Source of the DNA: an uncultured Oscillospiraceae bacterium
Lineage (GTDB): Bacteria; Bacillota; Clostridia; Oscillospirales; Butyricicoccaceae
Reading direction: 5' to 3'
Assembly: GCA_964541085.1 (NCBI GenBank)
Contig: CAZIPA010000006.1
Coordinates: 4,528 to 68,527 of the forward strand
DNA length: 64,000 nucleotides
Numbering within the stretch: the first letter of the stretch is position 1; every line of letters begins with the position of its first letter. This document shows, one piece after another, positions 331-58,061 of this stretch. Made by a program: the position numbers and the translations under genes. A model generated the notes under the pieces. It was given only the letters and a program-made list of their open reading frames with translations, did no database searches and was not told where the DNA came from.

Positions 331-1446
331 TTATTCCCCCGCTTTCAGCCGCACCGGCAGCACAAGATAGGTATAGCGGTCGCCCTCCGCCGGGGTCATG
401 GTGGCGGGAGAAAGGGCGCTCTTCAGGCCGAGAACAAACTCCTCATCCTGACAGGCCCGCAGGGCGTCCAGCAGATATTTGTTGTTGAAGCCGATCTCCA
501 GCGTGGTGCCGCAGTCGGGAATGTCGATCTCGTCATAGCTGCGGCCCAGAGCGGTGACACAGCACAGCTTGAGCTTGCTGCCTTCAAAGGTGCAGCGCAC
601 GGGATTTTTCAGCCGCTCGGAAATAATCAGACTGACCCGCTCCACGGCAGAGATCAGCTGGCTGCGGTTGAGCTTCAGCTGAATGGGCTGCTCTGCGGGC
701 ACCGCTGCCCGCCAGTTGAGAAACTCACCCTCCAGCAGACGGGTGGTGATCCGGGTGCGGTCAAAGGCAAACAGAGCGTGCTTACGCTGGGGATAAATGG
801 TGCATACGGAGTCATCGGAATCGGGCAGGATCCGGGCGATCTCCTTCAGCGCCTCGCCGGGCACCACAAAGCGGAAGCTCTCCTCCTGAGCGCATTCGAT
901 CTCCTCCTGCCGCACGGCCAGACGGTAGCCGTCCACGCCCACCATGCGGAAAACACGGTCGGTGACCTCCATCAGCGAGCCTGTGATAATGGGCTTGTTT
1001 TCGTTGTCGCCCACGGCAAACAGCACGCCGGAAATCATTTCCCGCAGCAGTCCGGAGGACAGGCGGAAGCATTCGGAAGAGTTCACCTCCGGCATTTCCG
1101 GAAATTCCTCCGGGTCAGAGGCAATCAGCTGAAACTCCGATGCGCCGCCGCGAATGGTGGCCATCAGCCGGTCATCCACATCAATTTCCACGGTTTCCGC
1201 AGGAAGACGGCGTACAATGTCAAACAGGATCCGGGCATTCAGCACTACCCGTCCGTGACGGCGAATATCCGCGTCAATTTCCCGTTGAATGGAGGTTTTG
1301 TAGTTGAAGCCGCTGATGAGCACATTGCCCGCGCCGCTTTCCAGCAGCAGGCCCTCCATCACGGCAGAGGCACTTTTGACACCCACCGCATGACTGCAAA
1401 TGGAGACCGCTTCTGCAAGGGCGGATTTTTCACAGGTGAAACGCAT
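331..1446 (-). CDS. dnaN: DNA polymerase III beta sliding clamp
   Basis: 371 aa, the typical clamp length, with full-length resemblance ([15 protein letters not shown]...). AAAGGAG RBS. Directly downstream of dnaA. Confidence 0.93.
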
Positions 1447-1744
1447 ATGCAGCGCTCCTTTCTATCAAATTTGAAGAAATTCTTTTCGTAGTAGTCGTAG
1501 GGGCTGTGGTAAATTCGGAAAACGCCGGAAACGCCTGAAATGACGGTGCTTTTCCCGTCCACAGCCGCCTGTTGAAAAGGAAATGTTTTTTTCGACGGTT
1601 TTCACAGGCAAATGTTTTTAACAGTTTTAACAGAGTTTTCCACAGAAAACTGTGAAGTGAAGGATGTCATCCCTGTTTTTACAGGGGTTTTCTCCGGCTG
1701 GAGCCCTGTGAAAAGGGGCGATTTTGGCCGAAGTTTTGAACAGG
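1447..1744. promoter_or_regulatory. dnaA-dnaN intergenic region, putative oriC component (DnaA-box cluster)
   Basis: 298-bp non-coding gap with AT-richer tracts. One 8/9 DnaA box TTTTCCACA at 1636-1644 and weaker boxes (TGTGGTAAA at 1505-1513). Gene-strand polarity flips around dnaA. Confidence 0.4.
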
Positions 1745-3037
1745 TTACTGCTCCGTGATGTTTTTTTGCAGATCGGCCACTTTATTTTTCAAAAGCTCAT
1801 CCTCCTGCATGGCCGCCGTGAGCTTTTCCACGCCGTAAATCACAGAGGTGTGATGCTGGTTGAAGACCTTGCCGATCTCCGGATAGCTCATGCCGCCGAT
1901 CTCCCGCATGAGATAGCAGGCCACCTGCCGGGGAACCACGATCTCCTTGCTCCGGGCTTTGGAGGTGAGCCGGGACTGTTCAATGACAAAATAGTCCGCC
2001 ACTTCCTGCAGAATCATCTCCGGCGTGGGATGCAGACCGGGCTTTTCCTTGAAAATGTCCCGAATGGCCGTCTGGGCCAGCTCCATGTCAATGGGTTTGT
2101 TCATCAGCGTGTGAATGGCGGCGATTTTTTTCACCGCGCCCTCCAGCTCACGCACATTGTTGGTGATGTTCTCGGCAATGTAGGTGACCACCCGGGTGGG
2201 AATGGTGATGCCCATACCGGCGGCCTTGGCCTGAATCATGGCCATGCGGGTCTCCAGATCGGGACTCTGAATGTCCGCCATCAGACCGCTTTCAAACCGG
2301 GTGCGCAGACGGTCGTTCAGCGTGGCGATTTCCTTGGGCGGCCGGTCGGAGGTGAGCACGATCTGCTTGCCTGCCTGATACAGCGCCTCAAAGGTGTGGA
2401 AAAATTCCTCCTGCATCCGCACCTTGTTGGCGAGAAACTGTACATCGTCCATGAGCAGCAGGTCTACCTGCCGGTATTTCTGATAAAAATCCGCAAAGCC
2501 GGAGTTCAGCGCGGTCAGCAGATCGTTCATGAAATCCTCACTCTTGATGTAGAGAATGCGGAAGGTGGGATGGGTCTTGCGGATGTAGCCCGCAATGGCG
2601 AACAGCAGATGGGTCTTGCCCAGTCCGGAGCCGCCGTAAAGAAACAGCGGGTTGTACAGGGTGGCCGGCTGCTTTGCCACCGCCAGTGCCGCCGCGTGGG
2701 CAAACTGGTTGCTGCTGCCCACAATAAAGCGCTCAAAGGTGTAACCGGCGTAAACGCTGGTGTCGCTTTGCAGCCGCCAGCTGTCTGCCTCCGGGCCGAA
2801 GACATACAGAGGCCTGGTGGGTGCTTTCAAAAGATGAGAAATAATTTCCGAAACATTGTCGGTAAACTGGGCTGTCAGCGTCTCCTGAAACAGCTCGCTG
2901 GCCGCCTCGATGACAAAGCAGCCGTTTTGAATGGCGATGGGCCGGGCATCCTTGAACCAGGGATCCACGGTGATGGCTCCCAGCTCGTCCCGCAGCTGCC
3001 GCAGGGTTGCGTCCAGCAGGGCTTCGGGCGTATACAT
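1745..3037 (-). CDS. dnaA: Chromosomal replication initiator DnaA
   Basis: 430 aa. AAA+ Walker A GGSGLGKTHLL, Walker B LLLMDDVQF, C-terminal DNA-binding signature HTSVIYGVEK. GGAGG RBS. Confidence 0.95.
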   Translation of the reverse strand: MYTPEALLDATLRQLRDELGAITVDPWFKDARPIAIQNGCFVIEAASELFQETLTAQFTDNVSEIISHLLKAPTRPLYVFGPEADSWRLQSDTSVYAGYTFERFIVGSSNQFAHAAALAVAKQPATLYNPLFLYGGSGLGKTHLLFAIAGYIRKTHPTFRILYIKSEDFMNDLLTALNSGFADFYQKYRQVDLLLMDDVQFLANKVRMQEEFFHTFEALYQAGKQIVLTSDRPPKEIATLNDRLRTRFESGLMADIQSPDLETRMAMIQAKAAGMGITIPTRVVTYIAENITNNVRELEGAVKKIAAIHTLMNKPIDMELAQTAIRDIFKEKPGLHPTPEMILQEVADYFVIEQSRLTSKARSKEIVVPRQVACYLMREIGGMSYPEIGKVFNQHHTSVIYGVEKLTAAMQEDELLKNKVADLQKNITEQ

Positions 3038-3614: not shown

Positions 3615-3932
3615 ATGACGAACCATCCTATCGACGGAGCCCTTGCCGCCAACGAAAAATCCTTTGAGATCGACCTCGTGAACAAGCAGACCGGCGCGAC
3701 CTATGCCCGGGCGAATGTCCTCGAAGACAACACCATGACGCAGATCCTTGGTGAGTATGCCGACGATATCGGCGTGAATCCCAAGAGCAGCAAACTCATT
3801 TTCGAAAACAAGCGCACCGGCGTGTCCACTTCCAATGCTGCCGAAACGGTTCAGGCCATGGGTCTGAAGCAGGGGGATGTGCTGGCAATTACGGATGACG
3901 GCGGTGTTGCGGCGGATGCTGCCGTAGTGTAA
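3615..3932 (+). CDS. Ubiquitin-like (beta-grasp) protein precursor with internal Gly-Gly
   Basis: 105 aa from ATG 3615 (AAAAGGAG RBS); the longer TTG ORF from 3453 runs through a repeat. Size and pattern fit one beta-grasp domain (KLIFENKRTG..QAMGLKQGDVLAITDDGG). G96-G97 (nt 3900-3905) is followed by the tail VAADAAVV. First gene of an E1/E2/JAB operon. Confidence 0.75.
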   Translation: MTNHPIDGALAANEKSFEIDLVNKQTGATYARANVLEDNTMTQILGEYADDIGVNPKSSKLIFENKRTGVSTSNAAETVQAMGLKQGDVLAITDDGGVAADAAVV

Positions 3933-3951
3933 GCGAAGGGGGTATGACCGG

Positions 3952-4377
3952 ATGGTGACGATCTGGATTCTGGTAGCCCTGTGTCTGGCCGCCTGCGGCG
4001 TCATCCTGATCTGTGCAACGGAAAAAGCGCCCCGGCGCCGCACTGTCAGACGGCCGCCTCCGCTCCCTCCCCGGGATCATCGGAACACAGCGCCGCCTCC
4101 GGTCGCTCGCCCCCAGACAGGCACATGCGGTGCCGCCCCCACAAGACCCCTGCCGCCCCGGCGTGTTTCAGCATCGGCAACCGTCAATGCAGCAGCAGGC
4201 ACCGTCCGGGCCGGCAGCGGCCCCCGTGGACTTCAGCCCCATCAGTTTCCCTGCTGTCCCATGGATAAATCGCGGAATGTTCCGGGAATGCAGCAGCTGA
4301 TCTTCTGGGACAGTGGGAAAAACTGCTATCGCTGTTCCCGTGGCCACCGGTTCCGGAGCAACGGAAGGCCGCTCTGA
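3952..4377 (+). CDS. Membrane-anchored Pro/Arg-rich protein with C-terminal Cys cluster
   Basis: 141 aa with a GAAGGGGG RBS. N-terminal TM helix (VTIWILVALCLAACGVILICA), a Pro/Arg-rich linker, and a C-terminal CC..CxxC..H cluster. Two other frames are also open here in this high-GC stretch, so the frame is uncertain. Confidence 0.5.
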   Translation: MVTIWILVALCLAACGVILICATEKAPRRRTVRRPPPLPPRDHRNTAPPPVARPQTGTCGAAPTRPLPPRRVSASATVNAAAGTVRAGSGPRGLQPHQFPCCPMDKSRNVPGMQQLIFWDSGKNCYRCSRGHRFRSNGRPL

Positions 4378-4403
4378 CAACACAAACGAAAGGATCGTGT
4401 CCT

Positions 4404-5675
4404 ATGTCCAAGGTTATTTACAACACATTAAAGCTGTCTGAATACCGGTCGCTGTTTCATGGAATGCGGGTGCTGGTAATCGGCGCAGGTGCGGTGGGCA
4501 CCCATCTTATGGAAAAGTTTGCGAAAATGGGTCTTTCCCCGGATGCGCTGGACTTTGACTTTTTCACGCTGGAAAACGCAGCAAAGCACAGCTGTCTGAT
4601 CCGCACGCCGGAGGATGCCAACCGGAACAAGGCGGAATGCGCCGCCGCCCGGGTACAGCCTCTTCTGGATGACGGCTGCTCCTCCAACGGGATCGACGGT
4701 GATCTTTGCAAAATCGGCCCCGAGGCGCTGGCAGATTATCGCTTTGTGGTGGTGGCTGTGGATAATTTCGATGCCAAGGTGCTGCTGGGCGAGCTGGTCC
4801 GGCAGCTTCCGGAGGAACGGCGGCCCATCGTCATCATGGACGGAACCTATGATGAGCTTGCCCAGAGCGTGATTCTCGATAACAACGACTTCTGTCTGCG
4901 CTGTCTGATCAGCGAAGACTGGATGCCCGACAGCAGCATCCGTACCTCCTGCTCCGGGCCGCAGGTGCGGCAGCGGAACGGTGCGGAGGAGATCGTCCGC
5001 ACCTCCAACCTTGCCAGCTCCATGGCCGCACAGCTCAGCGCAGAACAGCTCCGGGCCTGTGTGATCGGAAACGGCGATGTCATGAACCGCCGGCTGATCT
5101 ATACGGCCTATCCCCATCTGGAGCTGAGCTCCTCCCGGCCCCTGCGGAAGCGTGACTGCTCCGGCTGCGCGATCCATCCGCCCGCAGAGATCCAGTGGCT
5201 CCACGGCAGCGTTCTGGATATCACCCTGAAGGATGCCATGCAGCAGATTTCCGCCATTCTGGGCACGGAGGATTTCGAGCTCTCCGTCCATCAGCTGAAC
5301 TACCGGCGGGTATCCCACGCCCGCTTTATTGTGGATGATGTCTGTCATTCCTGCGGGAAACCCATCCCGGTGATGCGCCATGAGGGCCGCCTGTTTCTGA
5401 ACGATCTGCTGTGTACGGCCTGTGCCGCACAGGGAAAGCAGGCCCGTCAGGATGCCTCCTTTTCCCACGGAGAGGCGCTGGACGCCTTTGTGCCCGGCAG
5501 CCCGGAGGCGCTTCAGGAAATGACGCTCTACGATCTGGGCTATCCTCTCGGCGCACACCTTGCGGTGCTCCAGCGCAATCAGGCCCTGGACCTGCTGGAG
5601 CTGGGAAAAATCACGAAAACCGTGTTTGCATTGGACGGGGATGCCCGGAAGATGCATGAAATCCATAAGCTTTGA
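4404..5675 (+). CDS. E1-like Ubl-activating enzyme (ThiF/MoeB family)
   Basis: 423 aa. Rossmann VLVIGAGAVG (nt 4482-4499), DFDFFTLENAAKH, NKAECAA and VVAVDNFDAK match the E1 adenylation fold. Paired CxxC (CLRC, CSGC). Extra C-terminal CHSC...CTAC domain. Confidence 0.88.
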   Translation: MSKVIYNTLKLSEYRSLFHGMRVLVIGAGAVGTHLMEKFAKMGLSPDALDFDFFTLENAAKHSCLIRTPEDANRNKAECAAARVQPLLDDGCSSNGIDGDLCKIGPEALADYRFVVVAVDNFDAKVLLGELVRQLPEERRPIVIMDGTYDELAQSVILDNNDFCLRCLISEDWMPDSSIRTSCSGPQVRQRNGAEEIVRTSNLASSMAAQLSAEQLRACVIGNGDVMNRRLIYTAYPHLELSSSRPLRKRDCSGCAIHPPAEIQWLHGSVLDITLKDAMQQISAILGTEDFELSVHQLNYRRVSHARFIVDDVCHSCGKPIPVMRHEGRLFLNDLLCTACAAQGKQARQDASFSHGEALDAFVPGSPEALQEMTLYDLGYPLGAHLAVLQRNQALDLLELGKITKTVFALDGDARKMHEIHKL

Positions 5676-5690
5676 TAAGGAGGCTTTTCC

Positions 5691-6326
5691 ATGAGCGATT
5701 ATACTGCCAGCTATACCGATGAAAAGGGCCGTACCAAACAGGCCTCCCTGACCCCGGAGGACTCCATGCTGGCGCTGAAAAACGACTATGAAGAGGTTCT
5801 TCGGCGCTACAATCCCAAATATGTGACCATCCGCCGGATGCAGGCAAAGGCCGGTGAGGCGGCACACCTGCGGGTGACGGTCAACGCCCCTTCCCACTAT
5901 CTCACCGCCATCTCCGACACCGAGCCCAAGGCCTGTGACTCCATGGATGTGGATATCATCTGTTACATGGGCTATCCCCTCAAGCCGGTAAAAGCCTTCT
6001 ATGCCCCGGAGCATTATCTCGCATCCCCCAATGTGTTCCGCTCCGGGCTGGCCTGCATTGATACCTGGGTGCCCTTTACCAGCTCTCTGGTCTCGGTGGT
6101 GGACAAGCTGGTTCACGATATCATCCACGATCCCTGTGTCAGCCGGTATGACAGCGTGGCAAATCACGAAATGGTCCGGTGGCATAAGGACGGCGTTGCC
6201 GCGGGACGCTTTCCCACGCTTGCCCCCAGGCTGCTCAATGTCCCCCAGCAGACGGCGCTCCCGCCCCGCAGAGCACCCGGCAAGCCCGCTGCCGCACCTC
6301 CGTCCCTGCCCGCAAGACGCCGCTGA
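5691..6326 (+). CDS. E2-like Ubl-conjugating enzyme (UBC fold)
   Basis: 211 aa. UBC signature YMGYPLKPVKAFY..LASPNVFRSGLACIDTWVP: an HPN-like SPN motif with catalytic Cys122 at nt 6054-6056. AAGGAGG RBS. Pro/Ala-rich C-terminal tail. Confidence 0.85.
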   Translation: MSDYTASYTDEKGRTKQASLTPEDSMLALKNDYEEVLRRYNPKYVTIRRMQAKAGEAAHLRVTVNAPSHYLTAISDTEPKACDSMDVDIICYMGYPLKPVKAFYAPEHYLASPNVFRSGLACIDTWVPFTSSLVSVVDKLVHDIIHDPCVSRYDSVANHEMVRWHKDGVAAGRFPTLAPRLLNVPQQTALPPRRAPGKPAAAPPSLPARRR

Positions 6327-6347
6327 ACCGAAAGGAGCTGATCTTTT

Positions 6348-7238
6348 ATGACCAATCATGCGGTTCCCCTGCCCACCAGACGCCCGCCCCAGCCGAAAAC
6401 CTATCCCGTTTGCAGCCTGAAGAAGGTGATGGACATGATCCAGACCTCCTGCGGCAATGTTTCCATCAAAGAACGGCATGGCAGCGGCCGGGACAAGGTG
6501 ATCCTGCTTCCCGAGGCGGAGCAGGAGCTGACCACCATCGTCTCCTATGGCCGCCGCTCTCCCATGAATCGCTGCGAACAGAAGCTTGTTGGCATGGGAC
6601 ATTTCCTGCTGAACGACGACGGCGCCGTGATCGTCATCGTCAGCCATTTCATGGAGCTTCAGACCATGAACCGCAGCCCGGTCAGCGCCTCCGGTCTGGG
6701 CCCCAACGGCGAAAACAATCCCGGGCTGGATTTTCTGGAATATCATCGCACGGAGTTTCTCCGGGATGAGGCCAGATTCAACACCGATGCCTATGGCTGT
6801 CTGGTAGACCCATTTCTCAAGCTCTGCGGCCCCAGTGAGTTTGTGATGGATGCCCATACCCATCCGGATCTGGGGGTCTTTTACAGCCATGCTGACCGGG
6901 TGAACGGCGCGGCCCGTGCCGGTTCGTCTCCGGTGTGCATCCTTGTGTGCGATCCCATCCGGAAAAAGCTGCTGGGCAGCATCGGACGGGAGCTGGTGGA
7001 GGCAGAAATTCTGGTGTATTCCCGCAGTGCAGCTCCCCGGAAGGAGCGCAGCGGGGAGCCCTGCGAAGTGCCCTGCGGGGACAGCCGCCTGCTGCCGCCC
7101 ACGGACGAGCTTGTACAGCTGGCCGGTCAGTGTCTCCGCACCCGTGGCTTTTCCGGCAATGTCCGGCTCCGTTCCCGTCTGGACGGCAAATGCTGCCTGA
7201 ACATCCAGATGGTGATCCCCAAAAACAGAAAGGAGTAA
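6348..7238 (+). CDS. JAB/JAMM (MPN+) metallopeptidase, predicted Ubl-processing/deconjugating enzyme
   Basis: 296 aa. Complete JAMM motif: E77 (CEQKLVGMG) ... H170-T-H172-x7-S180-x2-D183 (HTHPDLGVFYSHAD, nt 6855-6896). AAAGGAG RBS. Confidence 0.88.
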   Translation: MTNHAVPLPTRRPPQPKTYPVCSLKKVMDMIQTSCGNVSIKERHGSGRDKVILLPEAEQELTTIVSYGRRSPMNRCEQKLVGMGHFLLNDDGAVIVIVSHFMELQTMNRSPVSASGLGPNGENNPGLDFLEYHRTEFLRDEARFNTDAYGCLVDPFLKLCGPSEFVMDAHTHPDLGVFYSHADRVNGAARAGSSPVCILVCDPIRKKLLGSIGRELVEAEILVYSRSAAPRKERSGEPCEVPCGDSRLLPPTDELVQLAGQCLRTRGFSGNVRLRSRLDGKCCLNIQMVIPKNRKE

Positions 7239-7243
7239 CGCGC

Positions 7244-8224
7244 ATGGCAAACCCTCCGGAAAAACTGGGCTCCGTGTACTACAGGAGCTTTCTCTCCCAC
7301 CAGGGGCAGATTTTTTATGACCGCCTTCAGGCCCAGCTTCTCCGGGGGGATTTTTCGGGCAAAACCGACTTTTCCCTGTGCGATCCCGAAACGGCGGCCT
7401 CCGACGGCTTTGCCGCCTACAAAGCCCTCCGGGACGATCATCCGGAGCACTTTTTTCTGGGAACCCAGAGCGAGTTTACCCGCCGGGGCCTGAGCGGCAC
7501 GCTGACCTATACGATGCTGTATACCCCGGAGATCATCGCACGGGTCCGGCAGCAGCTGCGAAAGACCATCTGCCAGCTTGTGCGCGGCACCGCGGAGCTG
7601 TCCATGCTTCAGCGGGAGGCGCTGGTTTATGAGCGCATCGCAAAGCGCATGACCTACACCAACCATGCGGATGTGCGTGACCACAACATCGTGGGGCCTG
7701 TGCTGAACGCCGAGGGTGTGTGCGAGGGGCAGAACGCGCTGCTGCTGCTGTGCTTCCGGCGGATCGGCATTCCCTGCGTCAAGGTGTACGGCAAAGCCAA
7801 CCCGGACGGCTGGCACTGCTGGACGGTGGCGTGGCCCGACGGAGACCCCGTTCACTGTGATGTGACCTGGGACGGCGCAAAGGGCGGCGTTGTAGGCTTT
7901 CATTATTTCAATCTCCCGGACCGGCAGATCGGGGAAAATCACTTCGCCTTTCAGGGAGAGCGTGTTCCCGTCTGCACTGCGGAAAATCTCACCTATTATC
8001 AGCTGCACGGCCTTTGCGTCCGTTCCCACGCAGAGCTCCGGGCACGGCTGAAGCGGGATTTTCAGCGGGGCGTAATGCCCATCCGGATTCAGTTTCTGTA
8101 CAGTCCCGCCTCCGGCAGCTATCGGGAGGAGGTCAAAAGTGCCCTTTCCGCAGAAAACCTCTATAGCAGCCGCAGACTGTACTGTTATCCCCGCTTAAAA
8201 AACATGGTAATCACCACCGTGTAA
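7244..8224 (+). CDS. Transglutaminase-like cysteine protease-fold protein
   Basis: 326 aa from ATG 7244, 5 nt after the JAB stop, with an AGGAG RBS. Transglutaminase-core Cys-His-Asp: GVCEGQN (C160), GWHCW (H191), HCDVTWD (D206). Confidence 0.82.
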   Translation: MANPPEKLGSVYYRSFLSHQGQIFYDRLQAQLLRGDFSGKTDFSLCDPETAASDGFAAYKALRDDHPEHFFLGTQSEFTRRGLSGTLTYTMLYTPEIIARVRQQLRKTICQLVRGTAELSMLQREALVYERIAKRMTYTNHADVRDHNIVGPVLNAEGVCEGQNALLLLCFRRIGIPCVKVYGKANPDGWHCWTVAWPDGDPVHCDVTWDGAKGGVVGFHYFNLPDRQIGENHFAFQGERVPVCTAENLTYYQLHGLCVRSHAELRARLKRDFQRGVMPIRIQFLYSPASGSYREEVKSALSAENLYSSRRLYCYPRLKNMVITTV

Positions 8225-8248
8225 AATCAAGACAAAGGAGTTGATGCT

Positions 8249-9337
8249 ATGTATCAATCGGTGATCAGAGACCCCGGCGGCGACGGACTGATCCGTGTTC
8301 TGCCGGATGCCTGGGGACAAAACCCCATTGTAAACGGGAGTCTGCTGCTGGTGCCCCCCGGCACGGTGGCGCTGGTGAACATCAACGGCCTGCTGTCCCG
8401 GCCCTATGGCCCCGGCAGATATGAGCTTTTCACCGGCGTGGATCCCTTCTTTGTGCGGCTCCGGAATCTTCTTACCCGTGGAGACCCCGGAACGACCGTA
8501 TCCGTCTTTTTCATTTCCACCGAAAAGACGGTGTTTCTCCGTCTCGGCACGGGTGAGTTCCCCTTCCGGGAGCATCGTTTTCAGCTGACCATGAAGGCCC
8601 TTGCCGCCTGCTGCCTTTCCTTCTCCGTGTCGGATCCCCGGACGCTGCTGGAAAAGCTGGTGGGAAGCTACCGCTCGTCCTTTTCTCAGGAGGATCTGGA
8701 GCCCTGCATCGAGCAGCTGATGCTGGCACCCGTCCGGGAAGCCGTTTCCGAAGCCATTGGCAGGCTGGATATCACGGCCTTCAACAGCCATCTTTCTCAC
8801 ATCGCAAGGCTGTCCACGGCAGCGATCCGCACCCGCCTGTCGGATTACGGCATCCGGCTGGAGCGGTTTGATCTTACAGCGATCAACATTCCCGACGGGG
8901 AAATGCAGCGGCTCTATCGTCTGGAGCAGTCGTTTGCCGAAGGGAAGACCCGCACCGATCTGGAGCTGGATCATCTGCAACGGGTCTGGCAGGGAAGCAC
9001 CGACCGCCGCACCATGAGCGAAATGATGACCGGGCTTCCTTCCCGTGGACAGGCTCCCGCCGGCGGAAACGCAGGGGGCATGGCGCCCATGATGATGCAG
9101 ATGATGATGCTTTCCCAGCTGCTTCCGGCTCTGCGGGAACCCCTTTCCGAAATGACCCGGCACACGGATCTGTTTGGCGGCAGCCCTTCCGGCCCGCAGG
9201 AAAGCACCTCCTCTGCCAACGCCCCTCCGCCCATGCCCGCCAGACACCGGCGCTGCCCCTCCTGCAACGGAGCTGTGGCACGCAGTGCCGTTCTCTGCCC
9301 CATCTGCGGCTATCCTCTGAATGAAAGGAATGACTGA
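8249..9337 (+). CDS. SPFH/band-7-like protein with C-terminal zinc ribbon (COG4260-like)
   Basis: 362 aa. The N-terminal ~250 aa resemble the stomatin/prohibitin-like 'virion core protein' family. Met/Gly-rich linker. C-terminal CPSC-x13-CPIC zinc ribbon. Confidence 0.7.
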   Translation: MYQSVIRDPGGDGLIRVLPDAWGQNPIVNGSLLLVPPGTVALVNINGLLSRPYGPGRYELFTGVDPFFVRLRNLLTRGDPGTTVSVFFISTEKTVFLRLGTGEFPFREHRFQLTMKALAACCLSFSVSDPRTLLEKLVGSYRSSFSQEDLEPCIEQLMLAPVREAVSEAIGRLDITAFNSHLSHIARLSTAAIRTRLSDYGIRLERFDLTAINIPDGEMQRLYRLEQSFAEGKTRTDLELDHLQRVWQGSTDRRTMSEMMTGLPSRGQAPAGGNAGGMAPMMMQMMMLSQLLPALREPLSEMTRHTDLFGGSPSGPQESTSSANAPPPMPARHRRCPSCNGAVARSAVLCPICGYPLNERND

Positions 9338-9338
9338 A

Positions 9339-9872
9339 ATGCAGTACAGAAATACTTCCTGGATCCCCATCCTTGCGGCCATCGTGATGATCCCCCAGCT
9401 GCTGTTCTGGTGGCTTGCGCCCGGCGCTGCCGCCGCCCGTCTCGCAGTGTACATCGGGGGAAGCCTTCTGACGCTGGCCATCCCCCTTTGCTGGCTTCTG
9501 ACCTGCTGGAACAGCAATCTCCGCAAAACGGCGGGGCTTTCTCTGGTGGCCGGGGTGCTGGAGCTGGCAGTGGTCGTGCTCTCCGCCGTTCTGCTGGCCA
9601 TCAATGTCACCGTCCGTTCTGCCGTATTTGCCCTTCTGATTATGGCGCTGGTGTGTCTGATTCTGCTGCTTCCGCTGATCTGCGCCGCCCTGAAGCAGCC
9701 TCGGCAGGGTGTCTATTCTGCCACCATCGCCGGAGAGCCAGGCCGTCCGCAGCCGCGCATCCGTGAGGCTGCTCCAGCGCCCGCACCGGTCTGCCGGCAG
9801 CAGACTGCCGTGACGGAGCCTGCGCCCCGCACGCCCACCGTCAGCAAGCCTCTGCCGCCCCGAAACCGATAA
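9339..9872 (+). CDS. Polytopic membrane protein (about 4 TM) with Pro-rich tail
   Basis: 177 aa from ATG 9339 (GAAAGGA RBS, 1 nt after the SPFH stop; an alternative ATG at 9321 overlaps it). Four hydrophobic helices, then a Pro/Ala-rich C-terminus. Confidence 0.7.
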   Translation: MQYRNTSWIPILAAIVMIPQLLFWWLAPGAAAARLAVYIGGSLLTLAIPLCWLLTCWNSNLRKTAGLSLVAGVLELAVVVLSAVLLAINVTVRSAVFALLIMALVCLILLLPLICAALKQPRQGVYSATIAGEPGRPQPRIREAAPAPAPVCRQQTAVTEPAPRTPTVSKPLPPRNR

Positions 9873-9901
9873 TCCGGCTCTGACAGAAAGGCGGTGATGC
9901 T

Positions 9902-10531
9902 ATGGATCGCGTTTGCAGCCGCTGCGGCGGCTCCAGCTTTCATTACAATCGCAGCCGCATGAGAATGGAATGCGATATCTGCGGCACGCCGGTTTCCGAT
10001 CCCCAGCGGGAACAGCAGCTGATGCAGTTTGACCGGGCCTGTTCTCAGGCGATGGAGCATCTGACTGCCGGAAACTGGGAGATGGCCCTTCAGCTTTTAC
10101 AGCCGCTGCTGCATCAGCATCCCACGGAAAAACGGCTGTATCTTGCGGTGCTGCGGGCGGCCACGAAGGATTTTACCGACATTGCCATGGCAAACGCGGC
10201 AAACCGGCACATTGCCTCGGAAGCCTGGGACAGGCTGGTACGGCTGAACGGTGTCACCGGGGCCATGATCCGGTATGGCAGACAGCGCTATGCTCTGCAC
10301 CGGGGAGAGCTTCTGCGCCAGCGCAGGAAGCTTCTGGCATGGATCTTTGCGGCGGCGCTCTGCTCGCTTCTGGCCGGTATTTTTCTGGAGACAGAGCACG
10401 GCTTTCTGGCGGTGCTGTGTGTGGGCGGTCTTTTTGGCTGCCTGTACCAATTCTCCCGCAGCCAGCCCATCCCTGTGATTCGGCATCTGCTGTGTGCCGT
10501 GCCCGGCGATCAGCACAATCCTTTTCTTTAA
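9902..10531 (+). CDS. Zinc-ribbon protein with helical repeat region and C-terminal TM hairpin
   Basis: 209 aa. N-terminal CSRC-x14-CDIC zinc ribbon, a TPR-like helical segment (AMEHLTAGNWEMALQLLQPLL), and two C-terminal TM helices. Confidence 0.7.
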   Translation: MDRVCSRCGGSSFHYNRSRMRMECDICGTPVSDPQREQQLMQFDRACSQAMEHLTAGNWEMALQLLQPLLHQHPTEKRLYLAVLRAATKDFTDIAMANAANRHIASEAWDRLVRLNGVTGAMIRYGRQRYALHRGELLRQRRKLLAWIFAAALCSLLAGIFLETEHGFLAVLCVGGLFGCLYQFSRSQPIPVIRHLLCAVPGDQHNPFL

Positions 10532-10543
10532 GGGGGTCTTTTC

Positions 10544-13087
10544 ATGAAGAAGTTTTATGATGGCGGAGAATGCTTTGTGCTGACGGCCTGCTCCATTGAG
10601 GCCGCACCCCTTGCAAGCAGCCAGCAGGTGGGCATCAACCTTGCGAAAACCCTCTGTGAGGATGCCTGCTATCTCTCCGCAGAGGGAAACGGGCAGACGG
10701 CACTGGAGCTTTTCCGCATTGCCGGAAAAACCCCCGGCAGTCCCATCCGGCATATTCTGACGATCCGTACCCATGACCGCTCGGAGCGGGATTGTGTGAT
10801 CCGGCAGGAGGCGCTGGAAAGGGGCATTCTGTCCCTGCTGCACCAGTCGGGCTACCGTATCCGTGAACTGCCCTTTGATGACTACCGGAGACAGCTTGCA
10901 CAGCTGGACACTGCCGCTGTCTGGGCGCTGAAAAAGCAGGAGGTGCAGGAATATGGCGTGCAGAACACCTATCGCTCTCCCGCAAGAGTGGAGGAGGTTC
11001 ACTGGGAAGGCATCTATTCCGCGCTGGCCGGCTCCGGCTGCGCCCTGTGCGTGCAGATCATTCCCGCTCTGCTGTCGGAGAACGAACGGCAGCGCATCGC
11101 AAAAAACACCGCCCATTGCTCTCAGGCAGTGGACGGTGTGGTGACAAATCTGCGGGACGGACTGGCTGCCGCCGCTGCGGAACGGTGGAAATACTATGCC
11201 CAGAATGCCTCCCGCCCCTTTGCAGAGGTGAATCTTCTGGTGATCGGCTCCGTTCCCGCCAGCGCCCTGACGGCGGCCCGGCTGAAGCAGTCGGTGCGGG
11301 AAGCCGCCCTGCAAACACTTCCCGTCCCGGATTTTGGCAGCTACACCGTCTACAATCAGCCCTGGCGGCTTGCCCGTGCTTTGCGCTCCGCCGACACCGG
11401 CAGTCTGGATCGGTGGACCTCTGAGGAGGCCGCCCAGATCTTTCAGCTGCCGGTGCAGGGCCATTTTTTCACCGGGCTGGAGGGAAACCCCTTCTCTCTG
11501 ATTCCCGAGCTGGAGCTTTTGCCGGAACAGCTGACCTGCGGCGGCGTGCCGGGGATCGTTCTGGGACGCTCTGTTTTTTCCGCCCGGCAGGTGGGGCTTC
11601 CGCCGGAACAGCTGCTGCTCCATACCGCAGTGATGGGAAAATCCGGCACCGGAAAGACGACGCTCCTGAAGCAGCTGATCGCACAGCTGCGGCGGCAGGG
11701 CATTCCGGTGCTGATTCTGGAGCCGGTGAAGCGGGAATACCGGGATCTGATTGCCGGACTGCCGGGCAGCAAAATCTTTACCGTGGAGCGCCCGGTGACG
11801 CCGCTGCTGATCAACCCCTTTTATGTCCCGAAGGGTGTGCCGCTGGGAGAATACAGAAGCTGTCTGCTGTCTGCCTTCAAGGCTGCCTTTTCCCTGCCCG
11901 ATCCGCTGCCGGCCCTGTTTGAAAAGGCCATCTCCGAGGCTTATACCCTGCACGGCTGGACGGACAGCAGCAGCAGCACCGATCCCGATGTCACCCTTTT
12001 TGACATGGCGGATTTTGTGCGTGTCTTCAAACGCATCATCGCCCGTTCTGGCTACAGCAATGAGGTCAAGGGCAACATGATGTCCGGCGGTGCCTTCCGG
12101 CTGCAAAGCCTGCTCGACCGCTGTCCCCGCACCTTTGATACCATCCATTCCACCGCTGTGGAGGAGCTGCTCTCCGGCTGCGCCGTTCTGGAAATGGGAA
12201 ACCTGGAGCCGGAACAGAAGGCGCTGGTTTCCGCCCTGACCCTCATCAGCATCCTGGCCTGGCTGAAGGCGACCAGAAAAAGTGAGCACCGTCTGAAAAA
12301 CATTCTTCTCATCGACGAGGCCCATGCCCTGCTGGATCAGGGAGAAGGGGCAACCATGGAGGAAAAGGCACTGAACAGCACCATGACCCAGCTGATGATC
12401 AATGTGATCACGGAGATTCGGGCCTATGGAGTGGGGGTCATTTTTTCCGTTCAGTCTCCCTCCCGGGTGGGCGGACGGCTGCTGGACAATGTGGACAACC
12501 TGCTCTCCTTCCGGCTCAGCGGCGAAGAGGCGGAAATGCTCCGGGCGCACATCGGCGCGGACGACAGTCTCTGCACGGTGCTTCCGCTGCTGTCTGCCGG
12601 TGAGCTGCTGGTGAAAAACCGCTTTCTCCGGTCTCCGCTGCCGGTCAGAATGAATGATCCCGCCGGGCTCTCCCGGACAGACCCCGTTTCCGATGAGGCC
12701 ATTGTCCGGGCGCAGACGGGCTATCTGGCGGCCCACGCCGGGGATTATTGTCCCTTTGCCCTCTGCAGGGCTGCCGGGTGCCGCTGCTGCTCCGTTTCCG
12801 TCCGGGAAGAGGCAAAGCTGTTTGCGGAGCAGCTGTTTGCCCAGCGGCAGCACAAGCTGCGCACGCCGGAGGAAGTTGCCGCACACCTGCTGCGTCTCCC
12901 GGCGGCGCTGGCCTCCCGTATTTCCCAGAGTGACAAAGGCGTTTTTCAGAAGCTTTGCGGCTGCACGGCGGTCCATCTCCTGCGGAAATGTGCCCTGGAG
13001 GGGGGCGTTTCCCTTGGCCAACAGGCCGCCGCAGCGCTGCTGACCGAAATGTATCAACAGAAAAAGGAGGAATCTGGCAATGAATGA
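10544..13087 (+). CDS. HerA/FtsK-type (DUF87-like) P-loop ATPase with large unknown N-terminal domain
   Basis: 847 aa. Walker A VMGKSGTGKTTLL followed by PVLILEPVKREY (HerA-like), Walker B NILLIDEAHALL, VIFSVQSP sensor region. Cys-rich C-terminus. AAGGGGG RBS. Confidence 0.82.
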   Translation: MKKFYDGGECFVLTACSIEAAPLASSQQVGINLAKTLCEDACYLSAEGNGQTALELFRIAGKTPGSPIRHILTIRTHDRSERDCVIRQEALERGILSLLHQSGYRIRELPFDDYRRQLAQLDTAAVWALKKQEVQEYGVQNTYRSPARVEEVHWEGIYSALAGSGCALCVQIIPALLSENERQRIAKNTAHCSQAVDGVVTNLRDGLAAAAAERWKYYAQNASRPFAEVNLLVIGSVPASALTAARLKQSVREAALQTLPVPDFGSYTVYNQPWRLARALRSADTGSLDRWTSEEAAQIFQLPVQGHFFTGLEGNPFSLIPELELLPEQLTCGGVPGIVLGRSVFSARQVGLPPEQLLLHTAVMGKSGTGKTTLLKQLIAQLRRQGIPVLILEPVKREYRDLIAGLPGSKIFTVERPVTPLLINPFYVPKGVPLGEYRSCLLSAFKAAFSLPDPLPALFEKAISEAYTLHGWTDSSSSTDPDVTLFDMADFVRVFKRIIARSGYSNEVKGNMMSGGAFRLQSLLDRCPRTFDTIHSTAVEELLSGCAVLEMGNLEPEQKALVSALTLISILAWLKATRKSEHRLKNILLIDEAHALLDQGEGATMEEKALNSTMTQLMINVITEIRAYGVGVIFSVQSPSRVGGRLLDNVDNLLSFRLSGEEAEMLRAHIGADDSLCTVLPLLSAGELLVKNRFLRSPLPVRMNDPAGLSRTDPVSDEAIVRAQTGYLAAHAGDYCPFALCRAAGCRCCSVSVREEAKLFAEQLFAQRQHKLRTPEEVAAHLLRLPAALASRISQSDKGVFQKLCGCTAVHLLRKCALEGGVSLGQQAAAALLTEMYQQKKEESGNE

Positions 13088-13733
13088 ACTGGAAACCATG
13101 GATCTGGACACCGCTGCGGAGGAGGACTTTGACCTTCCCGATGCCGACAGCTGGGCAGAGCTGGACACACCGGAGCCGGAGGACTGCGCCGGGGATATCC
13201 CGGACACACCGGAGCTGCTGTCTGATGGGGAAAAAGCTGCCGATTATGCCCGCTCCTTCGGCTTTGACCGGGCTGCGGACTATATCCAGCGGCATTATGA
13301 CGGGGACGAATACACCCCCGGCGATCCCATCCGCATTTCCACCCGCAACATGGGGCTGGAGGGTCTTGCTGCGGAAAACGGCGTTCCCTTTGAGCGGCGG
13401 ACGGCCCAGCTTGCCGAAGGTCTGTCGGTGGAGGGGGTCTTTCCCGCCTTTGACAGCCGCCATCATGTGGAGCTGGGCGATGCCGCGAAGGATATGAGCC
13501 TTCACCAGCAGTTCAGCGCCTGCAGGGAAGATTTTCAGGATCATATGTATGATTCCCCCGAAAAGCTGGCGGACATCACCTTCGGCGCGATGGAGCGGAT
13601 GGACGCACCCCAGGGCTATACGCCGGAGGGCTTCACCTGGCAGCACAATCCCGAAACCGGCAGCTTTGATCTGGTATCCAAAGACGCTCATTCCGTCGGG
13701 CACACCGGCGGGAACGCTTTGTGGGGGAAATAG
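13080..13733 (+). CDS. Acidic-N-terminus protein with HNH/EndoVII (WHH-like) nuclease motif
   Basis: 217 aa. The start overlaps the ATPase stop by 8 nt. The first ~50 aa are strongly acidic. The C-terminal GFTWQHNPETGSFDLVSKDAHSVGHTGG (nt 13638-13712) resembles the WHH/AHH-type toxin nuclease pattern W-x-H..LV...H...H-T-G-G. Confidence 0.6.
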   Translation: MNELETMDLDTAAEEDFDLPDADSWAELDTPEPEDCAGDIPDTPELLSDGEKAADYARSFGFDRAADYIQRHYDGDEYTPGDPIRISTRNMGLEGLAAENGVPFERRTAQLAEGLSVEGVFPAFDSRHHVELGDAAKDMSLHQQFSACREDFQDHMYDSPEKLADITFGAMERMDAPQGYTPEGFTWQHNPETGSFDLVSKDAHSVGHTGGNALWGK

Positions 13734-13999
13734 TGCGCCGCAGGCGCTGTATGCCTTCTCAGGCGGCCCCCCCACAAACGCAAAGCACCCCTGGGAGACC
13801 CCAGAGGTGCTTTGTCCAATACAGTGAACGGACAACCGGATGTGTTTAAGGAGTTCTTTATGAAAAAAGCGTTTTGCTTTTCCCTGTGTGTCTATAATAT
13901 ATCAAACCCGCAGGCATCTGTCAAGATGAAATCTGAAAATCGTGATGTTGCACAAAATACACAGGTTCCGATTGTGCAGTATGCTCAATGGGCACACGG

Positions 14000-14049
14000 G
14001 CTTTTTCCAAAAGAGCACTCCGGCAGGGCTAGAAGCCGCCGCCGGAGTG
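14000..14049 (-). terminator. Rho-independent terminator of htrA
   Basis: Stem CACTCCGGC (14016-14024) / GCCGGAGTG (14041-14049) with inner pairing. On the minus strand a U-rich CTCTTTTGG follows it. Confidence 0.5.
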
Positions 14050-14077
14050 TAATTGCATTCTGCTGCTTGTCTGCCGG

Positions 14078-15583
14078 TCAGTTGGCGTTGGGGTTTGCCA
14101 CCAGTGTGACGCTGACGGAAACCAGCTTGCCGCTGCGCTCCACATTCAGCTCCACCACATCGCCGGGGGCCTTGTCCGCCAGATAATCCGTCACATCGGT
14201 GCTCTGGGAGACCATCACCGCGTCCACGCTGATGATCCGGTCGCCCACGGCCAGACCAGCTTCCTCGGTGCTCTTTTCCGTAATGCTGGAAACATACACG
14301 CCGGGAGCCATGTTATACTGCGCCGCCGTCTGAGAGGTGAGGGTCTGAACGGTGATGCCCAGAATGGCCCGGTTGGAGGTCTGGGTCACGCCGTTTTCAT
14401 CGGTGTTTGTGCTGCCGTCGCCGTCGGGAGACACATAAACGCCGTTGGCGATGAGCTGAGAAGCGATCTCCATGGCCGTGTTGCTGGGGATGGCGAAGCC
14501 CAGTCCCTCAGAATCGGTGTCCGAGCTCTTGGCGGAAACAATGCCGATGAGCTGGCCGTGATCGTTGAACAGCGCGCCGCCGGAGTTGCCGGGAGAAACC
14601 GCCGCCGTCATCTGGATCACATGGAGGGTCACATTGGTATAATAGCTGGCAGAGCCGCCGTAGAACATATCATAGAGGCTGTTGCCCCGGTTTTTGGCGC
14701 TGGTATCCTCCACCTGCACGGTGATGGTGCGGTCGAGGGCGGACACAATGCCGTCGGAAATGGAGCCGGAAAAGCGGCCCTCCGGGTTGCCCACGGCGTA
14801 GCAGGCGGCACCCTGGCGCACCTGATCGCTGTCGGCGATTTCCGCAGCCTTCAGACCCTGAGCGTCGATCTTCACCACGGCGATATCACCGTTTACATAG
14901 CTGCCGGTGATCTGTGCCGCATGGGTGGTGCCGTCCCGCAGCTCCACGGTGACCTTGGAAGCGCCGTTGATCACATGGGCGGCGGTGAGGATGTAGCCAT
15001 CCTCCGAAATAATCACGCCGGAGCCTGCGCCGGAGGTGACATAATTGCCGAACCAGTAGTTGCTGGTGGTCATGATCTCGGTGGTAATGGCCACCACGGA
15101 ATCCTCCACCTTGGCCGCCACCTGTTCGCTGGTGAGCACACCTTCCGCCACGGCGGCGGGGGTATCGTTGCCGGTGGTGGTCACCTGCTGGAGCACCACA
15201 CGGTTGGTGTTCTGATAGACGATCTGCGCACCCGCATAGCCCGCGCCAAAGCAGATAGCCGCAGCCACCAGCACCGCCAGCACGCTCAGCAGCACCTTTT
15301 TGCCGTTGATCCTTTTCCGGGGCCGGCGCGGGGGCTCGGTCACCGTGGGCTGGGGCGGCGTAAAGGTGGAATCCTGCCATTCTGCCGTGCCAAAGCTGGC
15401 CTGCCGGGGCTCCTCCTCCTGCTGATAGGGGAGACTCTGACTGGTATAATGATATTCACTGCTTTCCGAGGGAGAAGGGGCAGCGAACGGCTCCTGAGGG
15501 ATTTCCTGCTCCGGCTGCCGGGGCTGCTCCTGAGGCTGCTCGGGCTGTTCGGGCTGATATCCGTTGTTTTCAAACTCGTTCAT
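14078..15583 (-). CDS. htrA: HtrA/DegP-family serine protease with PDZ domain
   Basis: 501 aa. Trypsin-like triad context (LTAAHVINGA, GNSGGALFN). C-terminal PDZ-like region. N-terminal Q/P/E-rich segment and a TM anchor. Confidence 0.9.
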   Translation of the reverse strand: MNEFENNGYQPEQPEQPQEQPRQPEQEIPQEPFAAPSPSESSEYHYTSQSLPYQQEEEPRQASFGTAEWQDSTFTPPQPTVTEPPRRPRKRINGKKVLLSVLAVLVAAAICFGAGYAGAQIVYQNTNRVVLQQVTTTGNDTPAAVAEGVLTSEQVAAKVEDSVVAITTEIMTTSNYWFGNYVTSGAGSGVIISEDGYILTAAHVINGASKVTVELRDGTTHAAQITGSYVNGDIAVVKIDAQGLKAAEIADSDQVRQGAACYAVGNPEGRFSGSISDGIVSALDRTITVQVEDTSAKNRGNSLYDMFYGGSASYYTNVTLHVIQMTAAVSPGNSGGALFNDHGQLIGIVSAKSSDTDSEGLGFAIPSNTAMEIASQLIANGVYVSPDGDGSTNTDENGVTQTSNRAILGITVQTLTSQTAAQYNMAPGVYVSSITEKSTEEAGLAVGDRIISVDAVMVSQSTDVTDYLADKAPGDVVELNVERSGKLVSVSVTLVANPNAN

Positions 15584-27658: not shown

Positions 27659-30286
<2,628 letters not shown>

Positions 30287-30317
30287 GCATCCCTCCGGCC
30301 GCATAAGCAAAATAACG

Positions 30318-30688: not shown

Positions 30689-30736
30689 ATCCTTCCGCCT
30701 CCTTTTCAGAAACAGTATGTCCCGGCATTCATCGGC

Positions 30737-58049: not shown

Positions 58050-58061
58050 AAATACCGCCGC

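Follow-up and report, generated by a model that had tools for sequence, protein, structure and literature searches.

How can a cell keep a DNase of the kind carried by polymorphic toxins when no antidote gene stands beside it? This question is raised by two adjacent genes in a 64,000-nucleotide stretch of DNA from an uncultured Oscillospiraceae bacterium (GenBank assembly GCA_964541085.1, contig CAZIPA010000006.1), which we call the window and whose own numbering is used throughout. The first gene (10544-13087, plus strand) encodes an 847 amino acid P-loop ATPase that is HerA/VirB4-like and belongs to the FtsK/HerA superfamily. The second (13080-13733, plus strand) encodes a 217 amino acid acidic HNH nuclease related to the Colicin-DNase and WHH families. 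A first-pass annotation, made from the sequence and its translated open reading frames (ORFs), had placed both ORFs at these coordinates, which our own translations reproduce.

The answer that we favour, and to which we give about an even chance, is that the pair constitutes an intracellular ATPase-gated DNase that serves as the effector module of a defence system linked to a ubiquitin-like protein (Ubl). The two genes are the last of an 11-gene operon (3615-13733, plus strand) that carries a complete set of Ubl-processing genes, and the pair is probably the killing or DNA-destroying arm of this operon. The evidence is drawn from the linkage of the two genes, from the features of the two proteins, and from comparison with known systems.

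Linkage of the ATPase and nuclease genes

The start of the nuclease gene and the end of the ATPase gene overlap by eight nucleotides (ATGAATGA, 13080-13087, plus strand), as the first-pass annotation had indicated. A Shine-Dalgarno sequence for the nuclease gene (AAGGAGG, 13064-13070, plus strand) is located inside the ATPase coding sequence, nine nucleotides before the ATG at 13080. Of 54 related loci, 46 share the 8-nucleotide overlap and another three have one of 4 nucleotides, and thus the arrangement is not peculiar to the genome of the window. The two genes are translationally coupled and are almost never separated.

All eleven genes are conserved in four Clostridia genomes at 51-77% identity, and the operon is the same in more distant members, whose ATPases are 45-49% identical. 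A scan by motif, able to detect only close relatives, gives hits in 5 of about 185,000 species representatives. When metagenome contigs are scanned with motifs of the nuclease, 75 loci are recovered, mostly from the human gut, and the 48 of them with at least 2.7 kb of upstream sequence are informative for linkage. The ATPase gene is located directly upstream of the nuclease gene in 45 of these 48. The exceptions (L077-L079) are N-terminally truncated nuclease remnants that lack the ATPase (around 9940-10240) and look like what is left of a decayed system. They are 81-82% identical to the nuclease of the window and lie between transglutaminase-like and Lon-like genes, and in L078 an in-frame stop interrupts the WQH motif, described below, of the remnant.

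In the deep variants L068 and L069, the ATPase and the E1 enzyme are each only 29% identical to those of the window and the nuclease is 66% identical, whereas the reverse is seen in L008, in which the ATPase is 49% and the nuclease 34% identical. Because the identities in L069 and L008 run in opposite directions, the nuclease and ATPase trees disagree, and this comparison of sequences suggests either effector exchange or very uneven rates. Since L068 and L069 retain the genes for Ubl, E1, E2, JAB peptidase, SPFH protein, ATPase and HNH nuclease even at an ATPase identity of 29%, these genes define the conserved core, and the pair is always accompanied by the other five. The gene order in L069 (36-10528) is NACHT, transmembrane/Zn-ribbon protein, E1, E2, JAB, Ubl, SPFH, ATPase and nuclease, such that the Ubl gene follows the JAB gene.

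The nuclease and its partner ATPase

The C-terminus of the nuclease (TWQHNPETGSFDLVSKDAHSVGHTGG, residues 186-211) had been likened in the first-pass annotation to WHH-type HNH toxin nucleases. The sequence is as it was given there, and the family assignment is borne out by two Pfam matches above the gathering cut-off. Colicin-DNase (PF12639; 46.0 bits against a cut-off of 25, 9.6e-12) spans residues 115-210 and profile positions 3-96 of 96, and WHH (PF14414; 32.9 bits against a cut-off of 25.1, 5.4e-8) spans residues 179-217. The predicted catalytic beta-beta-alpha-metal motif (W187-Q188-H189...H204...H208-T-G-G, 13638-13712, plus strand) aligns to the WHH motif of the Rhs toxin 8bd1. A total of 225 nuclease homologues were found, and H189, H204 and H208 are invariant in the alignments of the family. 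Judged by motif order and weak profile matches rather than by structure, these residues correspond to H103, H127 and H131 of colicin E9. In that enzyme, H103 is the general base and H102, H127 and H131 are metal ligands, of which H102 is constant (10.1101/2020.04.29.068437). We therefore read the protein as a Colicin-DNase/WHH-type HNH domain with a putative general-base His and two putative metal-ligand His residues.

In the window the triad itself reads W-Q-H rather than the literal W-H-H of the family name. The 120 close homologues agree with it: Gln is present in every one and Trp in 119, with Cys in the remaining sequence. The variant W-N-H is found in L069, and W-H-H in L008 and in outgroup toxins. 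Given that the Gln stands at the position of H102, the activity of the nuclease may be weak or its metal preference unusual. However, the nuclease is probably active, because an amide oxygen can ligate Mg.

An AlphaFold2 (AF2) model of the nuclease, made from a 25-sequence alignment that is too shallow, has a mean predicted local distance difference test score (pLDDT) of 54, with strands at residues 185-190 and 195-200 and a short helix. A Foldseek search with this model gives no match at E <=0.001. When the single nuclease sequence and the family profile are searched against PDB sequences, there are only chance matches to Dps/ferritin proteins. A broader profile made from outgroup relatives gives weak matches, over the WHH motif to the Rhs toxin 8bd1 (4e-4) and over the helices before it to the colicin E7/E2 DNases (0.008-0.07).

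When 1.8 billion cluster representatives are searched with a profile, 676 relatives of the nuclease are recovered. Those outside the immediate family are proteins of 180-840 amino acids that share the domain of about 135 amino acids at the extreme C-terminus, and both Pfam domains are present in 50 of 50 sampled outgroup relatives. A few outgroup relatives have PT-HINT, Tle1-like or DUF4280 N-termini. Relatives on annotated Bacillus plasmids are described as 'WXG100 family type VII secretion targets', and one of them is directly followed by an SMI1/KNR4 immunity gene. By this kinship, the nuclease domain is best seen as a derivative of the polymorphic-toxin pool.

Two features of the protein were considered as signs of its special context and were set aside. 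The catalytic domain is acidic (net charge about -12, in a protein whose overall isoelectric point is 4.19), which might have been a mark of the ATPase-linked family, but the domains of outgroup toxins are acidic too (median -7.9). The C-terminal ...ALWG-X might have been a Ubl-like Gly for E1 activation, as for cGAS in CBASS. This idea was rejected because the W-G end is also conserved in outgroup toxins that lack Ubl genes.

The N-terminal half of the nuclease (residues 1-114) has no Pfam domain, and the protein has no LXG, WXG, Rhs or PAAR domain and no signal peptide, in agreement with the earlier statement that a trafficking domain is absent. Residues 1-48 (13080-13223, plus strand) form a predicted disordered tail (pLDDT below 50 for residues 1-44) with 18 Asp or Glu residues, no Lys or Arg and a net charge of -18.5, and so the description of the first 50 or so residues as highly acidic also holds. 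Across 120 homologues, the tail averages 31% Asp or Glu and 2% Lys or Arg, and its length ranges from 13 to 208 residues. Its sole conserved element is the motif [DE]-T-[ST]-[DE]-W-x-x-[FL]-D, in which Trp is followed after two positions by a hydrophobic residue. This element is present in 107 of the 120 homologues and takes the form D-A-D-S-W25-A-E-L28-D in the window (13140-13166, plus strand). The first-pass annotation had suggested that the acidic segment could be autoinhibitory or a DNA mimic. Because the tail has this conserved motif in addition to bulk charge, its sequence points to docking on a partner rather than to simple charge mimicry.

The middle region that follows (residues 49-114; 13224-13421, plus strand) consists of a predicted helical pair (EKAADYARSFGFDRAADYIQRHY) and then beta strands, and is a candidate for the part that docks on the ATPase. 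Its helices are placed at residues 49-59 and 63-72 by the low-confidence AF2 model, and its invariant residues include K52, Y56, R58, Y68 and R71. The helical pair (residues 49-75) is found in the ATPase-linked proteins and, beyond them, in only a few outgroup toxins. In two homologues (P0004 and P0036), the acidic N-terminal region holds a degenerate second catalytic motif, for example SHDPETGSFDLVAMEDGHTGGNALWG in P0036. This second copy points to an internal duplication or to recombination between the ends of the gene.

The first-pass annotation had also reported that there is no immunity gene, and the related loci lead to the same view. No ORF located 3' of the nuclease gene is conserved across lineages, and no SUKH homologue is present in the window or in any locus, whereas the Bacillus locus mentioned above, used as a control, does have its SMI1/KNR4 gene. 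An ORF at 13861-14186 with a good ribosome binding site was considered as an immunity gene and rejected, as it overlaps the 3' end of an HtrA-like gene in antisense and has no counterpart in relatives. A hairpin predicted by RNA folding (13780-13815, no strand assigned) with a 15-pair stem is located between the convergent nuclease and HtrA-like genes and is the probable end of the operon. It is not called by a terminator scan, as no T-run follows.

Nothing follows the nuclease gene in the window and in L002. In 26 of 51 loci (L001, L003, L004, L006, L008 and L087 among them), the nuclease gene is followed by genes for a small protein, ClpP, a protein of about 275 amino acids and a soluble VirD4/TraG-like ATPase. 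Six loci instead have genes for an 82 amino acid protein, a 1088 amino acid Lon-like double-AAA+ protease and an SprT-like zincin (10883-15594 in L028). At its 3' end, the operon has a slot of variable content that is devoted to ATP-dependent proteolysis, and the presence of such proteases together with the Ubl, E1, E2 and JAB genes hints at a link between Ubl tagging and proteolysis. In the common version of the operon typified by L001, an M50 site-2 protease gene comes after the VirD4-like gene, and in L087 (238-2721), which is of this version, two SprT-like zincin genes and a YbjN/type III secretion system (T3SS)-chaperone-like gene are located just upstream of the Ubl gene. The zincins, the YbjN-like gene and the M50 gene are all absent from the window.

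The ATPase has been described in the first-pass annotation as HerA/FtsK-type, and several searches concur. Pfam matches to DUF87 (26.8 bits, cut-off 23.2) and HerA_C (25.9 bits, cut-off 22) are above the cut-off, although both are partial and located around the P-loop, and AAA_22 is above its cut-off as well. The PADLOC models that match the protein best are mad8 (2.7e-17), HerA (6e-14) and DndH (9e-12). In NCBIfam there are matches to CedD, VirB4 and HerA, all of them sub-threshold, with the VirB4 models far below the cut-off. A profile of the 27-sequence ATPase family, when compared with PDB sequences, matches Sulfolobus HerA (4d2i, 4.8e-11) and also the HerA subunits of Sir2-HerA and related complexes.

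The motifs named in the earlier annotation are located at residues 365-373 (Walker A, GKSGTGKTT; 11636-11662, plus strand), 390-399 (LILEPVKREY) and 588-594 (Walker B, LLIDEAH; 12305-12325, plus strand). In the alignment of 27 sequences, G365, G368, K371 and T373 of Walker A, D591, E592 and H594 of Walker B, and also R626 are invariant. The protein thus appears to be an FtsK/HerA-superfamily motor with intact catalytic motifs.

The AF2 model of the ATPase has a pLDDT of 88 and a predicted template-modelling score of 0.79. In a Foldseek search of the PDB with this model, TrwK/VirB4 comes first (2e-17) with an end-to-end alignment, for which the global template-modelling (TM) score is only about 0.3. 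Next is the C-terminal domain of DndH (7es4; 7e-15, TM score 0.72), and further matches include Sulfolobus HerA, Sir2-HerA, the C-terminal domain of VirB4 (TM score 0.70) and HerA-DUF4297. The matches to VirB4, the DndH C-terminal domain, HerA, Sir2-HerA and HerA-DUF4297 span E values from 1e-17 to 1e-11, and the HerA-NurA structures 9x1m and 9x1l are matched as well. The ATPase belongs to the HerA/VirB4 branch of the FtsK-HerA superfamily and is outside any named subfamily.

On both sides of this core the protein has domains of its own. The earlier annotation spoke of an N-terminal domain of about 330 amino acids with no assigned family. The lack of a match stands, both in Pfam and in PDB sequences, and the region (residues 1-335; 10544-11548, plus strand) can now be described as a confidently modelled alpha/beta domain of about 335 residues that is conserved across the family. 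AF2 depicts it as repeated beta-beta-alpha units with no obvious small barrel. The Cys-rich C-terminus that had been noted earlier corresponds to a helical domain in the AF2 model (residues 713-847; 12680-13084, plus strand). This domain has no Pfam match and is retained in the deep variant L069. Residues C741, C746, C749 and C807 are invariant and H811 is nearly so, and they probably form a Zn site.

One prospect raised with the first-pass annotation was that the ATPase could be a conjugative coupling protein with relaxase partners. The sole match to a coupling-protein model is a 43-residue match of the P-loop to TrwB_AAD_bind (21.4 bits), and Pfam detects neither a T4SS-DNA_transf nor a TraG-D_C domain. 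When the translation is read by eye, no hydrophobic stretch resembling a transmembrane segment is evident. Moreover, no genes for a relaxase or for VirB3/6/8/10, the channel of a type IV secretion system (T4SS), are present in the annotated loci. We conclude that the ATPase is not a coupling protein. Of the VirB4-type Pfam models, AAA_10 scores 16.5 bits, below its cut-off of 27.5, and CagE_TrbE_VirB gives no match.

Proposed function of the pair

We propose that the pair is the output end of a membrane-associated Ubl-conjugation operon that most likely acts against phages or other invading DNA. A ring of the ATPase would bind the nuclease, probably through the helical middle region, the acidic W-x-x-F/L-D tail, or both, and would hold it inactive or off DNA until a signal comes from the Ubl and membrane module encoded upstream. 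The ATPase might then translocate DNA into the HNH sites, a mode of action akin to that of HerA-NurA. Under this proposal, the toxin-derived DNase is tolerated without an immunity protein because the partner ATPase and the tail control it in place of an antidote. The suggestion in the first-pass annotation that the pair is an effector arm fits the synteny in 45 of 48 loci, the conserved coupling and the structural relationship of the ATPase to the HerA proteins that accompany Sir2, DUF4297 and NurA. The effector role itself remains a matter of interpretation.

The closest functional parallels are HerA-DUF4297 (PMC11291478) and Sir2-HerA (PMC11472057), in which the effector is nearly inactive until it is assembled on the HerA ring. 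Like the pair described here, these systems have a HerA-clade ATPase, hexameric in their case, beside a toxic effector without an antidote gene, and the ATPase cores match in Foldseek (8ziq, 8xau and 8wld, with E of about 1e-11 to 1e-13). However, they consist of two genes, their HerA has a HAS-barrel, and their effector is a Cap4-like nuclease or a Sir2 NADase. The pair in the window instead has a 335 amino acid alpha/beta N-terminal domain, an extra Cys-rich C-terminal domain, an HNH nuclease with an acidic tail and a place in an 11-gene Ubl operon. A related concept is that of HerA/FtsK 'capture', in which a nuclease receives invader DNA from a translocase, as put forward for systems including DndFGH and DptFGH (PMC10853773). 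Again a HerA/FtsK translocase and a nuclease are joined in a conflict system, and DndH is among the best matches of the ATPase by structure and by PADLOC model. Unlike those systems, there are no Orc/Cdc6, winged helix-turn-helix, restriction endonuclease or kinase partners, the HNH domain is a separate protein, and the context is one of Ubl, SPFH and membrane proteins.

A different set of likenesses is seen when each component is followed on its own. The nuclease shares its catalytic family (PF12639/PF14414) with the WHH/Colicin-DNase polymorphic toxins (PMC3482391), at about 30-35% identity over about 135 amino acids; the Bacillus cereus WXG100 toxin with its SMI1/KNR4 immunity gene is an example. 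It departs from them in having no trafficking domain or immunity gene, a Gln for the first His, a short acidic tail and coupling to an ATPase. The separate putative Ubl, E1, E2 and JAB genes correspond to the component set of Bil, and they recall Bil (types I and II) and Bub (PMC11601603; 10.1101/2023.09.26.559546). The Ubl consists of one beta-grasp unit or two, and its C-terminus contains Gly and ends in a short tail. Unlike Bil and Bub, the order here is Ubl, transmembrane protein, E1, E2 and JAB; the E2, JAB and Ubl match no curated hidden Markov model (HMM), and seven further genes are conserved, the ATPase-nuclease pair among them. The two papers just cited do not mention ATPase, nuclease, SPFH or transglutaminase partners. 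As for VirB4 (TrwK) and VirD4, the best Foldseek E value, the end-to-end alignment, the similar size and the VirD4/TraG-like gene added in sister loci speak for kinship. The low global TM score, an AAA_10 match below the cut-off and the lack of any other T4SS gene or relaxase in any locus set the ATPase apart. Overall, the pair works like a HerA-effector pair, yet it lacks, or does not clearly show, several features of each named family.

Septu is a further defence system in which two proteins, the ATPase PtuA and the HNH nuclease PtuB, act without an immunity protein, like the pair described here. However, PtuA is of the ABC/SMC type rather than FtsK/HerA, PtuB belongs to a different HNH family, and Septu has no Ubl genes.

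Several observations weigh against the proposal of an ATPase-gated DNase. The ATPase has no recognizable HerA HAS-barrel, its best Foldseek match (VirB4) is a secretion ATPase, and motors of the FtsK/HerA superfamily can also move proteins. The equivalent of the constant metal ligand His102 of colicin E9 is Gln in all of the close homologues, and the nuclease model is poor and the fold search based on it meaningless. The ClpP plus VirD4-like or Lon-like additions in half of the loci are unexplained by the proposal. No PADLOC system model matches the operon, and among the Ubl, E1, E2 and JAB proteins only the E1 is matched, by CBASS E1-E2 models. The evidence for a defence role is contextual. 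Likewise, no description of an operon that combines Ubl, HerA/DUF87 and HNH genes was found in the literature searched, and the 11-gene operon is apparently undescribed. We infer, rather than observe, that a complex forms, that the tail or the ATPase gates the nuclease, that DNA is the substrate, that the Ubl and membrane module sends a signal and that the operon acts in defence.

One might imagine that the ATPase is a protein motor that extracts or unfolds Ubl-tagged proteins at the membrane, feeding ClpP or Lon in sister loci, and that the nuclease acts separately after being armed by removal of its tail or of an inhibitor. The location of ClpP (with a small protein and the VirD4-like ATPase) or of the Lon-like protease directly after the nuclease gene would fit this arrangement, and so would the richness of the operon in peptidases (JAB, transglutaminase-like, SprT-like and M50). 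VirB4, VirD4 and EssC relatives handle protein substrates. Even so, the window and about half of the loci keep the pair without any ATP-dependent protease module, the nearest characterized relatives by sequence (HerA, DndH, CedD and mad8) are associated with DNA, and the strict coupling to a DNase is more easily reconciled with a shared DNA substrate. We consider a protein motor unlikely. The nuclease could also be an antibacterial weapon, exported to competitors by the VirB4-like and VirD4-like ATPases and the membrane proteins in the manner of a T4SS or a type VII secretion system (T7SS). Indeed, the nuclease domain is most closely related to C-terminal toxin domains (WXG100, PT-HINT, Tle1-like, DUF4280 and, in the PDB, Rhs), TrwK/VirB4 heads the Foldseek matches of the ATPase, four of the proteins that the operon encodes are membrane proteins, and the VirD4/TraG-like gene of 26 of 51 loci and the YbjN/T3SS-chaperone-like gene of L087 would have a place in such a machine. 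However, no lineage has an immunity gene, and sibling cells would therefore be unprotected. The nuclease has none of the export domains looked for and no signal peptide, and no genes for VirB3/6/8/10, EssB, EsaA, WXG100 proteins or a relaxase were found. The VirD4-like protein, as read from its translation in L008, has no hydrophobic stretch at its N-terminus that could be a transmembrane anchor, and its gene is missing both in the window and in half of the loci, whereas the pair is always kept. Furthermore, a complete E1, E2 and JAB set has no role in known secretion systems. Export thus strikes us as quite unlikely.

The distribution of the operon bears on two other explanations. It is found at different genomic places in different genomes, as might be expected if the pair served a selfish island in DNA transfer, partition or addiction, with the HNH protein nicking or homing and the ATPase pumping DNA. 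Mobile operons of Firmicutes commonly include HerA/FtsK ATPases (PMC10853773), and one locus is present in a collection of viral contigs. That single match, however, comes from a set of 2.9 million viral contigs, and in the plasmid and phage collections there is no copy of the operon, only distant relatives of the ATPase core (<=30% identity). Within 10 kb there are no integrase, relaxase, replication or partition genes in L006, L008, L069, L087 and L028, and the nuclease is of the non-specific toxin type rather than a homing endonuclease. For these reasons we find a selfish function very unlikely. Perhaps the least plausible idea is that the pair is a housekeeping repair machine, a bacterial counterpart of the HerA-NurA end resection of archaea, for which the matches of the ATPase to HerA-NurA structures could be cited. 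The patchy, island-like distribution (the few species representatives noted above, by a scan for close relatives), the embedding of the pair in a Ubl and membrane operon and a nuclease that is derived from toxins rather than NurA all speak against it, and no Mre11 or Rad50 genes are noted in the annotated loci. We regard this explanation as extremely unlikely.

An addition to the proposal of an ATPase-gated DNase concerns the signal. The tail motif might be a Ubl-interacting motif akin to the LC3-interacting region (LIR), Atg8-interacting motif (AIM) or SUMO-interacting motif (SIM), given that it too is an acidic run followed by W-x-x-hydrophobic. If so, Ubl conjugated to a target, for example an invader protein at the membrane, could recruit or unlock the ATPase-nuclease complex, and the ClpP or Lon modules of sister loci would remove the tail or a Ubl-tagged inhibitor. 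This is a long shot. If true, a bacterial ubiquitin-like signal would be read non-covalently to direct a DNase, by a logic so far known only in eukaryotes.

The broader interest of the pair is that bacterial ubiquitin-like systems, such as CBASS type II, Bil and Bub, tag proteins, and the events after tagging are largely open. The operon is widespread in Clostridia of the human gut and ties a full Ubl/E1/E2/JAB set to what looks like an obvious killing device, a motor ATPase joined with a toxin-derived DNase, which makes it a tractable case for how a Ubl signal becomes an effector response. It would also be an example of a polymorphic-toxin nuclease that has been domesticated for an intracellular task although no immunity protein is present. 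In the process, the trafficking domain seems to have been lost, an acidic tail with a motif gained, one metal ligand altered and the nuclease tied obligately to an ATPase. Should the pair prove to be a DNA-capture nuclease, the HerA-effector theme would gain an HNH branch.

The operon and its surroundings

The nine genes upstream of the pair are all on the plus strand. They begin with the Ubl gene (3615-3932), whose product ends in ...DDGG plus 10 residues and has no HMM match, followed by genes for a small transmembrane/Zn-ribbon protein (3952-4377) and a ThiF-type E1 (4404-5675; Pfam ThiF, 54.8 bits). The predicted E2 (5691-6326) has no HMM match and carries SPNVFRSGLAC, and the JAB peptidase (6348-7238) has an HxH-x7-S-xx-D motif and a Prok-JAB match of 17.9 bits that is below the cut-off. 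Next are a transglutaminase-like Cys-His-Asp protein (7247-8224; Pfam Transglut_core), an SPFH protein with a Zn-ribbon (8249-9337; Pfam Band_7_1), a protein with four transmembrane segments (9321-9872) and a Zn-ribbon protein with a transmembrane segment (9902-10531). That the pair belongs to a Ubl/E1/E2/JAB operon, as the first pass had supposed, agrees with the translations, the Pfam matches and the co-conservation of the whole set with the pair in dozens of loci. An analogy with the T7SS, in which an FtsK-like ATPase, a YukD-like Ubl and a nuclease toxin would be brought together, was considered and dropped, as Pfam detects no YukD, EssB, EsaA or WXG100 families.

The Ubl of the window consists of one beta-grasp unit, and most relatives have a tandem di-Ubl in one frame (2837-3379 in L001). 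In L003, one Ubl unit is at the usual place and a second Ubl-like ORF (9323-9493) occupies the slot that usually holds the gene for the four-segment transmembrane protein.

A proline-rich motif, P-[LM]-P-[PAT]-R-[RNH], is common to five proteins of the operon, where it is located in tails or linkers. It occurs twice in the small transmembrane/Zn-ribbon protein, in the N-terminal tail of the JAB peptidase, in the linker of the SPFH protein, in the C-terminal tail of the E2 (ALPPRR and SLPARRR) and at the extreme C-terminus of the four-segment transmembrane protein (KPLPPRNR*). The motif is found at the same places in the L008 homologues and is absent from the ATPase and the nuclease. Only three other matches are present in six-frame ORFs of at least 100 amino acids in the window. 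This pattern of sequences suggests that one common docking partner may gather the Ubl enzymes at the membrane.

The genes dnaN and dnaA are located directly upstream of the operon on the minus strand (331-3037), and the operon therefore appears to be inserted next to a likely replication origin. The dnaA, dnaN and HtrA flanks of the window are found in none of the related loci, where the flanking genes vary from locus to locus, and different NACHT/STAND genes flank four divergent lineages. Variable flanks and NACHT/STAND neighbours are the pattern expected of a horizontally moving conflict island. Elsewhere in the window, at 30000-33000 and 58000-60000, there are two stretches of unusual composition, one with a G+C content of 0.66-0.67, a strong negative GC skew and a positive AT skew, and the second with a G+C content of 0.44.

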